Below, in pieces: positions 61,571 through 63,187 of a stretch of DNA of 64,000 nucleotides. The stretch is taken from assembly GCA_965229565.1 (NCBI GenBank), contig OZ245888.1, positions 848,639-912,638 on the forward strand, given 5' to 3'. Origin of the DNA: Gammaproteobacteria bacterium. Its GTDB lineage: Bacteria > Pseudomonadota > Gammaproteobacteria > Eutrophobiales > Eutrophobiaceae. The position numbers and the translations under genes are program-made. Position 1 is the stretch's first letter, and every line of letters begins with the position of its first letter. The notes under the pieces were generated by a model, which saw only the letters and a program-made list of their open reading frames with translations, searched no databases and was not told the DNA's origin.

Positions 61571-63187
61571 ATGTCAAATCGCACTTTTTATATAACCTCG
61601 GTAGTATTTTTCGTTCTCGCTTTTTGCTTTTTATATAGTATTTCCTATGACAATAGGGCAGTAGGGTTACTTTCAGACGATGCGCTGTATTTGATCATGG
61701 CGGATTTTTACTCTCCCTGGGTAGAAACCCTGGATTACGTGCAGGCATTTGTCAGTGTGACTATACACTTCCCTCCGTTATATTCATTGTTTCTCGGAAT
61801 ATTAGGAGCAGGCTCCGAAAATCCGGAGTACGCGTTCCTGTTAAATACGCTTTGTTTATCAGTCGCACTTTTTATTGTTGTTATCTGGCTCAAAAAAGAA
61901 ACAGAAAATGTTGCACTGGCCTATACCGTGGCCACGCTAACCCTGGTTCTTCCTACACTATTACTCCTCTCACAGGAGCTGTGGAGCGAATTTCTTTTTA
62001 TGGTGTTCTTTTACCTGTTTCTTTATGTGTTCTCACATAAAGAAATGCAAAAAGAGCACTTTTTTCTGTGTGCATTGCTTGCAGGCTTGATGACACTGAC
62101 CAGGAGTATTGGTCTGAGCGTTGTGATTGCGTATTCAATGTATCTGCTCTATAAGCGCCCCCGGTATTTCTGGGTTTACCTGGCTGTCGCTATATCCCCG
62201 TTTATTTATCTGAAATTTAAATCCAGTTCAAACCCGTTCCGTGAAAACTACGTGGATGCATTTAAAGCGCGCGTGCCGGATTTATTCAATACCAATATAT
62301 TCGACTACGCTTCAGAACAGCTTGTCAGCTTATGGCAATCATGGGTATACCTATTTTCACCCATTCAATGGTCATTATTGCCAGTACAGGTTGAAACTAT
62401 AATATTAACTGTGTTGTTACTTGCGTTTTTTATTGGGTTTATCCTGCGCTTGCTGGAGCACAGGATTGATGCACTAATTGTGATAATTTATTTGGCGATT
62501 GTGGCGGTGTGGCCTTACTCAGAGGTGCGTTTTGTCAGCCGATTTTTATCCCCGTTATTACCGCTAATCTTTTTCTACAGCATACTTGGCAACCAGTTTG
62601 TATTTTCCAGACTGAAGCTGCCCAGGCATTGTTACGTAATTCCTGTTCTGGTAGTGCTGGTAATTATTTCGTCCGATCTGCATATTTTAAAACGTGCCTA
62701 TGCGTCCATGGAGCCGGAATTAAAGCCTTATTCAAGGATAAAGGAATGGTTAACTCATGTGTCTTACGAAAACGCGATATCAGAAGTAAAGACCAGGAAG
62801 CGGTACCTGGAAATCCTCAAGCAGTTACAGGACTACATTCCTGAGGACGATTGTACTTATGCAATACACCCACCTGTCACGATGCTGCATACAAAACGCA
62901 TGTCAGGGTCTTATCTTGACGCTGCCTCCAGTGTCGATGAGTTGCTGGAGAGATTGCCAACCTGTAACTACATGATTGCATCGTACCTGGTAGATCATAC
63001 TGAAGACTATGATGCGTACTATCCCATGGACCTGGTTTGGGATAGTGATAGATTTGAATTTTATGCCTTTTACCTGGATGAAGAAGCAGGAAGCGAGCAG
63101 AAGAGCCAGATATTGCTGATGCTTATCAAGCGCATCGATAACGAAAGCCTTATTGACAAGAACCGGCAGACTGGAAACAAAAAGTGA
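61571..63187 (+). CDS. GT-C-fold polytopic membrane glycosyltransferase-like protein with a C-terminal soluble domain
   Basis: A 538-aa protein with ~11 predicted TM helices. The first loop motif LSDDALYLIMADFY matches the DEAxY-type motif of ArnT/PMT-like GT-C enzymes, and there is a ~170-aa hydrophilic C-terminal domain. It lies between pilR and pilA. Confidence 0.5.
   Translation: MSNRTFYITSVVFFVLAFCFLYSISYDNRAVGLLSDDALYLIMADFYSPWVETLDYVQAFVSVTIHFPPLYSLFLGILGAGSENPEYAFLLNTLCLSVALFIVVIWLKKETENVALAYTVATLTLVLPTLLLLSQELWSEFLFMVFFYLFLYVFSHKEMQKEHFFLCALLAGLMTLTRSIGLSVVIAYSMYLLYKRPRYFWVYLAVAISPFIYLKFKSSSNPFRENYVDAFKARVPDLFNTNIFDYASEQLVSLWQSWVYLFSPIQWSLLPVQVETIILTVLLLAFFIGFILRLLEHRIDALIVIIYLAIVAVWPYSEVRFVSRFLSPLLPLIFFYSILGNQFVFSRLKLPRHCYVIPVLVVLVIISSDLHILKRAYASMEPELKPYSRIKEWLTHVSYENAISEVKTRKRYLEILKQLQDYIPEDDCTYAIHPPVTMLHTKRMSGSYLDAASSVDELLERLPTCNYMIASYLVDHTEDYDAYYPMDLVWDSDRFEFYAFYLDEEAGSEQKSQILLMLIKRIDNESLIDKNRQTGNKK

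Follow-up and report, generated by a model that had tools for sequence, protein, structure and literature searches.

A GT-C-fold membrane protein encoded between pilR and pilA as a candidate pilin glycosylation enzyme in a gammaproteobacterium

Gene content of the pil locus

In a 64,000-nucleotide stretch of a gammaproteobacterial genome (assembly GCA_965229565.1, contig OZ245888.1, positions 848,639 to 912,638; hereafter the window) we analysed a membrane protein gene located among type IV pilus genes as a candidate for pilin glycosylation. This open reading frame (ORF538; ATG to stop, positions 61571-63187, plus strand) encodes 538 amino acids and belongs to an unnamed family of membrane proteins for which 11 transmembrane helices and the fold of the glycosyltransferase C (GT-C) superfamily were predicted. 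It is preceded on the same strand by pilS, encoding a sensor kinase (58523-60154; Pfam domains 6TM_PilS, HisKA and HATPase_c), and by pilR, encoding a sigma-54 activator (60147-61469; Response_reg, Sigma54_activat and HTH_8), which overlaps pilS by 8 nucleotides. It is followed, also on the plus strand, by pilA1, the gene of the major type IVa pilin (63441-63887; Pfam Pilin and N_methyl; GTG start; mature protein of 140 amino acids). ORF538 begins 101 bp after pilR and ends 253 bp before pilA1. The genes pilB and pilC are found at 43480-46427 of the window, and a type IV pilus machine is therefore present.

Upstream of pilA1, 74 bp before its start codon, lies a sigma-54-type -24/-12 element, TGGCACATAACCTGCT (63352-63367, plus strand), the single match to the pattern TGGCAC-N5-YTGCW in the whole window. 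At least one match to this pattern was also found in 22 of 100 shuffled sequences, and the site is credible because of its position before pilA rather than because of its rarity. The open reading frame, the Pfam domains and the promoter match thus confirm a preliminary description of this DNA, which had placed a 538-amino-acid gene between PilSR and a sigma-54-driven pilA. A simple scan of the gap between pilR and ORF538 revealed neither a sigma-70 promoter nor a terminator, and the corresponding gap measures 65-74 bp in two closer orthologues. Because the 101-bp gap contains no such predicted signal, ORF538 may plausibly share a transcript with pilSR, in contrast to pilA, which is preceded by a sigma-54 promoter of its own.

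A protein identical to ORF538 is present in assemblies labelled 'MAG: Gammaproteobacteria bacterium' (MAG, metagenome-assembled genome). The NCBI version of this protein (MEQ8288806.1) is a hypothetical protein of 496 amino acids that starts at M43 of ORF538. Such a start would drop window positions 61571-61696 and with them the first transmembrane helix and an acidic DD motif that includes the invariant residue D36. As this region (residues 20-42) is conserved family-wide, we consider the 538-amino-acid start correct and the NCBI start mis-called.

Sequence family and predicted structure of ORF538

An exhaustive homologue search of 1.84 billion representative sequences assigned 909 clusters to the ORF538 family at E≤1e-3, 505 at 1e-10 and 119 at 1e-30. 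This search was needed to expose the family, as a word-indexed search had yielded just seven relatives. Nearly all relatives are 480-560 amino acids long and aligned end to end, and ORF538 is a real gene because 909 representative clusters match it, nearly all over the full length. When 88 relatives were scanned singly against Pfam (E≤0.1), 22 of them matched PMT_2 (best E 1.3e-7), four matched Glyco_transf_22 and three a TMEM260-like family, all of which are GT-C families. One relative matched Wzy_C (E 0.015), a domain not matched by ORF538 itself. A profile comparison (hhalign) of the ORF538 family with the PMT_2 protein encoded elsewhere in the window (54956-56299) resulted in a co-linear alignment over 235 columns (E 3.4e-4, probability 38%) in which WSE was paired with LTE and LTRS with LTRS.

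The best AlphaFold2 model of ORF538 reached a predicted local distance difference test score (pLDDT) of 79.1 and a predicted template modelling score (pTM) of 0.83. In a Foldseek search with this model against the PDB, the 19 best matches were all GT-C-fold proteins with probabilities of 0.96-1.00. The first of them was the aminoarabinose transferase ArnT (5ezm; E 8.4e-5, probability 1.00), and 5f15 is likewise an ArnT structure (E up to 1.5e-4, TM-score about 0.45). The others included ALG12, DPY19, a chain of a secretory translocon complex, Pmt1/Pmt2, AftB, Pmt4 and a glycosylphosphatidylinositol (GPI)-transamidase chain, while ALG3 and PimE ranked lower in probability. The best match outside the GT-C fold was a transporter at a probability of 0.08. 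The preliminary description had named placement in a transporter family by remote homology as the result that would speak against a glycosyltransferase; no transporter scored above 0.1, and this objection therefore fails.

Helices of the model and hydropathy together indicated 11 transmembrane segments with the N-terminus inside and the C-terminus outside. The loops assigned to the cytoplasm are rich in lysine and arginine (KKE, HKEMQKEH, KRPR, RLLEHR and SRLKLPRH). The first periplasmic loop, by comparison, is acidic, comprises 59 residues and contains short helices. It carries the motif LSDDALYLIMADFY (residues 34-47; 61670-61711, plus strand), in which D36 and D37 are the proposed catalytic acidic pair, located just after the first transmembrane segment at the start of a short loop helix. 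D36 was invariant in 88 sequences and D37 among the 22 closest. S139, R178 (within LTRSIG) and R324 were also invariant, Y40, E140, W314 and P315 nearly so, and the FPP at residues 67-69 was invariant or near-invariant. D36, D37, Y40, the FPP, S139-E140, R178, W314-P315 and R324 are all predicted on the periplasmic side. By analogy with the established GT-C mechanism, D36 would be a catalytic or metal-binding acid and R178 and R324 would be ligands of a phosphate group. Residues 377-538 (62699-63184, plus strand) form a C-terminal periplasmic alpha/beta domain in the model, as assigned by DSSP, without tetratricopeptide repeats (TPR); it contains the conserved C428 and C465, which probably form a periplasmic disulfide. 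Both the acidic motif in the first loop and the polytopic architecture with a C-terminal periplasmic domain had been read from the sequence in the preliminary description, and both hold.

ORF538 thus shows the features of the GT-C superfamily, i.e. 11 transmembrane segments (range in the superfamily 8-13), the GT-C fold and an acidic motif in the first extracytoplasmic loop, and it is very probably a GT-C glycosyltransferase. Some of our results count against this assignment. No Pfam or NCBIfam model matched ORF538 itself, not even with the cut-off relaxed to E≤1, and the protein missed the PMT_2 gathering threshold of 26.1 bits. A profile built from the 88 members and run against all PDB sequences retrieved no GT-C protein; its sole hit was a chance match to IrtB (E 0.19). 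The AlphaFold2 model was built from an alignment of seven sequences, and the pLDDT of the four remaining models was lower, at 56-69. The TM-scores against GT-C structures were just 0.42-0.50, although such values are usual between different GT-C families. Regarding the likeness to ArnT, PMT and TfpW proposed in the preliminary description, the GT-C fold and the acid in loop 1 were found, but by sequence ORF538 is not a member of the TfpW, PMT_2 or ArnT families. The Pfam search of the protein that had been suggested there gave a result for relatives of ORF538, by way of PMT_2, and none for the protein itself.

The pilin island of this genome

The window stops 113 bp past pilA1. We extended the view on the same chromosome by 10 kb on each side of the exact protein (locus L019). 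The gene order there is the PMT_2 gene, sucD and sucC on the opposite strand, pilS, pilR, ORF538, pilA1, a second pilin gene (pilA2), and then genes for a 607-amino-acid protein, a 290-amino-acid family 2 glycosyltransferase (GT2_290), a helix-turn-helix protein, Wzm, Wzt, a 509-amino-acid glycosyltransferase-like protein, a methyltransferase and another family 2 glycosyltransferase (GT2). The genes for PilA2, the 607-amino-acid protein and GT2_290 directly follow pilA1 at L019:12461-15731, which corresponds to about 64031-67301 in window numbering, beyond the window end. Within the window itself, a tblastn search for GT2, TfpW-like and other island genes found none beyond the genes already known.

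At the N-terminus of the 607-amino-acid neighbour a transmembrane helix precedes FVFDDFYNL, and TPR repeats form the C-terminal end. The AlphaFold2 model of this neighbour (pLDDT 87.7) matched TPR proteins as well as AglB, STT3 and Pmt4. An hhalign comparison of its family with the ORF538 family gave a probability of 0.7% and thus no detectable similarity. TfpW has been described as a protein of 646 amino acids with 11 transmembrane segments that carries a DDX motif in its first periplasmic loop and a TPR domain at its C-terminus, and the gene of which lies immediately downstream of pilA (bioRxiv 10.1101/2020.04.19.049825). Because the combination of GT-C fold and TPR, the FVFDD loop motif and the position downstream of the pilins fit this description, the TfpW-like enzyme of the locus is, as judged from architecture and position, the 607-amino-acid neighbour and not ORF538. 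Of the TfpW proline motif YX6PFX7P we could recognise by eye the YX6P stretch alone, and this motif was not used as evidence. GT2_290 had its best NCBIfam matches, all below cut-off, to AglJ, PgfS, dolichyl-phosphate hexose transferase, ArnC and PpgS, enzymes that charge polyprenyl phosphate with a sugar.

PilA1 contains a C121-C139 loop, ends in lysine and has T62, S66 and T67 in its alpha-beta loop. It had been called rich in serine and threonine, which is true (18.6% of the mature pilin) but weak as an argument, such a content being nothing out of the ordinary for pilins. At 63930-63956 (plus strand), 3' of pilA1 and before pilA2, we read by eye a GC-rich hairpin with a perfect 7-bp stem followed by a T-run (GGCCGCC-TTCAG-GGCGGCC), which resembles an intrinsic terminator and was not listed by the terminator scan. 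The PMT_2 gene at 54956-56299 (plus strand; Pfam PMT_2 E 4.8e-12; 447 amino acids by our open reading frame call, 427 in L019) encodes a separate GT-C protein. It is set apart from pilSR by sucCD, and its GC content of 0.39 is the minimum of the neighbourhood, compared to 0.50 for the window. It possibly belongs to the same glycosylation repertoire as ORF538.

Family members at pilin loci elsewhere

We collected 38 distinct loci encoding a family member, in part with an alignment of the 22 closest relatives, and scored them by tblastn and a prepilin-motif scan. In nine of the 38, one to three copies of the family member lay beside pilA. These pilin islands were the window with L019, L018 (79% identity to ORF538), L001 (31%), L003, L006, L009, L021, L024 and L026. 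The adjacency to pilA thus recurs among relatives of 31-34% identity from independent MAGs and metagenomes. Orientation varies between the islands: the gene is co-directional after pilR in our genome, divergent from pilA in L001, L021, L024 and L009, and upstream of pilA in L026. L009 (6830-11987) encodes three tandem paralogues of the ORF538 family that abut pilA divergently, with a TPR GT-C, a GT2 and a family 4 glycosyltransferase (GT4) across pilA, and two copies each are present in L006 and L003. A TPR GT-C occurs in seven of the nine pilin loci, and a GT2 more than 45% identical to GT2_290 in six, often then a GT4. L001, L021 and L024 additionally encode a third GT-C with TPR repeats ('FLNFDDN'). 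The proposal of the preliminary description that ORF538 is a candidate enzyme of pilin glycosylation therefore gains computational support from this recurrent adjacency, the varied gene orders and the one to three tandem copies.

The island pilins represent one subtype with the pattern …WP-x-Y/N-L/I-T-x-V-G-x-T-x-x-G-K-Y-V…KYLPGACK. T67 and T62 of the alpha-beta loop were each conserved in most of them in the pilin alignment. The main glycans of the Pa5196 pilin are attached at T64 and T66, in the alpha-beta loop region (bioRxiv 10.1101/2020.04.19.049825).

Further genes were noted at these loci. L021 encodes a VTT/DedA-domain membrane protein (7507-8208, minus strand) between the ORF538 homologue and the third, TPR-type GT-C, and L024 has an open reading frame in the matching position (7546-8301, minus strand). 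DedA proteins have been implicated in the translocation of undecaprenyl phosphate, and the L021 protein is a possible island flippase for polyprenyl phosphate or its sugar-linked form. L026 encodes an 897-amino-acid protein with an LtaS/EptA-type Sulfatase and a GDPD domain (225-2918), and a 634-amino-acid TPR-sulfotransferase between two pilin genes (8256-10160). Pilin loci seem to gather several kinds of modification enzyme. L006 (5067-6917) and L026 (4140-5962) share a conserved protein of about 616 amino acids without Pfam or NCBIfam match, located between an ArnC-like GT2 of 326 amino acids and the ORF538 homologue. The L026 version begins with a hydrophobic stretch and then 'INDDG'; the protein may be yet another GT-C.

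Comparison with known systems

TfpW is the pilin D-arabinofuranosyltransferase of Pseudomonas aeruginosa group IV. Like ORF538 it is an inner-membrane GT-C protein with about 11 transmembrane segments, a large periplasmic C-terminus and a gene adjacent to pilA. Both share a DDX motif in loop 1 (S-D-D-A at residues 35-38 of ORF538), and ArnT is the best structural template for both. The two differ in the C-terminus, which is TPR in TfpW and alpha/beta in ORF538, and in gene position, downstream of pilA for TfpW and upstream, after pilR, for ORF538. Unlike TfpW, ORF538 is an additional GT-C beside a TfpW-like one in its island. This comparison was made by the published description of TfpW, and in the profile test (0.7%) the family of the 607-amino-acid neighbour stood in for it.

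With ArnT (GT83, the undecaprenyl-phosphate-4-amino-4-deoxy-L-arabinose:lipid A transferase) ORF538 shares the overall layout of a transmembrane core, a first loop that contains short helices and a periplasmic domain at the C-terminus, and both ArnT and the ORF538 family partner an ArnC-like GT2. There was no match at the sequence level, neither in NCBIfam nor with the PDB profile. The window contains no arn operon, and the partner gene is a pilin gene rather than lipid A genes. The protein O-mannosyltransferases PMT_2/PMT/TMTC (PF13231, GT39/GT105 and bacterial relatives) include the Pfam family nearest to ORF538, PMT_2, by way of its relatives, and Pmt1/2 and Pmt4 are among its structural matches. 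ORF538 lacks a MIR or TPR domain. PMT-type enzymes move a sugar from a polyprenyl-phosphate sugar onto serine or threonine of a protein.

In three-component systems of periplasmic glycosylation, polyprenyl phosphate is charged by a GT2, and after the action of a flippase a GT-C transfers the single sugar outside the cytoplasm (PMC11127046). Such GT2s, as in the GtrA/GtrB/Gtr-type, ArnC/ArnT, PgfS plus GT-C and Citrobacter ORF12-15/GT136 systems, also flank the ORF538 family. In contrast to these systems, up to three GT-C families and one to three tandem ORF538 paralogues surround the pilin genes, and the GtrA-type flippase was not found at ORF538 loci, L021 having the DedA/VTT gene instead. 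TfpO (PilO), PglL and PglS are, as proposed for ORF538, polytopic membrane enzymes that modify pilin, and the tfpO gene is adjacent to pilA. As members of the Wzy_C family they move oligosaccharides en bloc from undecaprenyl diphosphate, while ORF538 has neither a Wzy_C domain nor a match to that fold.

Alternative explanations

Could ORF538 be the TfpW orthologue, and thus the sole pilin arabinosyltransferase or oligosaccharyltransferase of the organism? We rejected this candidate, which we consider extremely unlikely, on the missing TPR domain, the gene position upstream of pilA, the profile comparison with the TPR GT-C family and the protein of TfpW architecture encoded downstream. Furthermore, L019 with its 21.6 kb showed no genes of the DprE1/DprE2 type for D-arabinofuranose. 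Only slightly less improbable is an O-oligosaccharyltransferase of the TfpO/PglL type that would transfer a pre-assembled glycan from undecaprenyl diphosphate onto pilin. It would agree with a pilin-adjacent polytopic protein and with the glycan-assembly genes downstream, but Wzy_C was matched by the one relative alone, no WaaL or PglL structure was among the matches listed, and PilA1 ends in lysine, in contrast to the C-terminal serine used by TfpO (bioRxiv 10.1101/2020.04.19.049825). A non-enzymatic protein that resembles GT-C enzymes, i.e. a transporter, a flippase or an accessory protein of pilus assembly, is also very improbable. GT-C-fold proteins without transferase activity do exist, GPI-transamidase chains are found among the structural matches, and TfpW itself was proposed to flip its own substrate. 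Against this stand the invariant acid in loop 1, the invariant arginines facing the periplasm, the low probabilities of all transporter matches and the repeated pairing of the family with GT2s that resemble synthases of polyprenyl-phosphate sugars.

The more serious alternative, though still a rather unlikely one, is a GT-C enzyme with an acceptor other than pilin, such as lipid A or the lipopolysaccharide core, an O-polysaccharide exported by an ATP-binding cassette (ABC) transporter or other envelope proteins. The adjacency to pilA would then reflect a hot-spot of surface variation. A number of observations favour this explanation and weigh against a role on pilin. In 13 loci a GT2 of 233 amino acids (GT2_233) accompanies the ORF538 homologue, which it adjoins, usually immediately upstream, except in one of the 13, where it lies about 1 kb off; its sub-threshold NCBIfam matches are the same as those of GT2_290. 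L003 alone of the thirteen also has a pilin, while the other twelve, about a third of all loci and typically near suhB/purM, have none within 6 kb. In a rough neighbour-joining tree of 36 members, pilin-linked and other members did not fall into two clean clades. Because of these twelve loci and this tree, the ORF538 family as a whole is not pilin-specific. In L003 a fragment resembling ArnA/UDP-xylose synthase and a GT2 lie directly upstream. ArnT as the top structural match would suit a lipid or lipopolysaccharide acceptor. In our genome Wzm, Wzt and further glycosyltransferase genes follow 4-9 kb downstream, and modification of O-polysaccharides dependent on ABC transporters by three-component GT-C enzymes has been documented (PMC11127046). 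In addition, this genome has no GT2 directly adjoining ORF538, and we found no flippase candidate in it. On the other side, pilin is favoured by the recurrence of the adjacency to pilA among relatives of 31-34% identity and across several arrangements of the genes, and by the tandem copies that abut pilA in L009. By a rough estimate a pilin would occur by chance in about 2% of 12-kb neighbourhoods, compared to the nine of 38 loci observed. Loci without a pilin may have one elsewhere in the genome, and in L029 a PilS-like kinase is encoded next door.

As regards individual loci away from pilins, this L029 kinase (116-1762, minus strand) is a histidine kinase 31% identical to PilS of the window and adjoins the ORF538 homologue. 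The homologue is paired with the 233-amino-acid GT2 and with a TPR membrane protein of 654 amino acids, and no pilin occurs in the 9.6 kb present. In L012, L016 and L036, distant family members adjoin relatives of the PMT_2 gene of the window.

Proposed role and significance

Taken together, we propose at a probability of roughly 0.55 that ORF538 acts in pilin glycosylation as one part of a conserved island, with pilin or the pilin glycan as its acceptor because of the conserved synteny. The link of the family to pilin is circumstantial but conserved. In the proposed mechanism a GT2 in the cytoplasm would attach a monosaccharide to undecaprenyl phosphate, and the lipid-linked sugar would be flipped to the periplasm. 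At the periplasmic face of the membrane ORF538 would then take the sugar from the polyprenyl-phosphate-linked donor, with an active site around D36. The two GT-C enzymes, i.e. the 607-amino-acid TPR protein and ORF538, would O-glycosylate membrane-anchored PilA before its assembly. In the division of labour we prefer, the TPR GT-C would recognise the pilin and add the first sugar to serine or threonine of the alpha-beta loop, and ORF538 would extend or branch the glycan or serve a second site or a second pilin, although the reverse order is also possible. The TPR GT-C is favoured as initiator because of its protein-recognition domain and because it occupies the position of TfpW.

More tentatively, in these uncultured gammaproteobacteria an oligosaccharide might be built stepwise on the pilin in the periplasm by several GT-C enzymes fed with polyprenyl-phosphate monosaccharides, the TPR GT-C initiating on serine or threonine and the ORF538 family, with its one to three paralogues, elongating or branching; we regard this extended proposal as possible, yet doubtful.

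GT-C enzymes that use lipid-linked sugars and the glycosylation of pilins by enzymes encoded beside pilA are already known. To our knowledge the pilin-modifying enzymes described so far are TfpW and oligosaccharyltransferases of the Wzy_C type, and we know of no previous description of pilin islands with two or three unrelated GT-C enzymes and amplified paralogues. The ORF538 family is mentioned neither in the TfpW publication (bioRxiv 10.1101/2020.04.19.049825) nor in that on three-component systems (PMC11127046).

The recurrence in pilin islands of a second, sequence-unrelated GT-C family beside a TfpW-like enzyme suggests that the stepwise building of pilin glycans in the periplasm is more elaborate than in the single-enzyme TfpW model. 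It also hints at a function for about 900 protein clusters without a Pfam or NCBIfam model, the member in this MAG carrying the NCBI name 'hypothetical protein', and new GT-C enzymes with a defined protein acceptor would be of interest for glycoengineering. In the TfpO and TfpW systems of P. aeruginosa, pilin glycosylation reportedly alters pilus assembly, surface properties and the susceptibility to pilus-specific phages. If stepwise assembly on the pilin were true, it would be a protein-anchored analogue of mycobacterial arabinan and mannan assembly and the ORF538 family would found a new glycosyltransferase family. The number and identity of the paralogues would then set the glycan type of the pilus and hence its phage or immune specificity.

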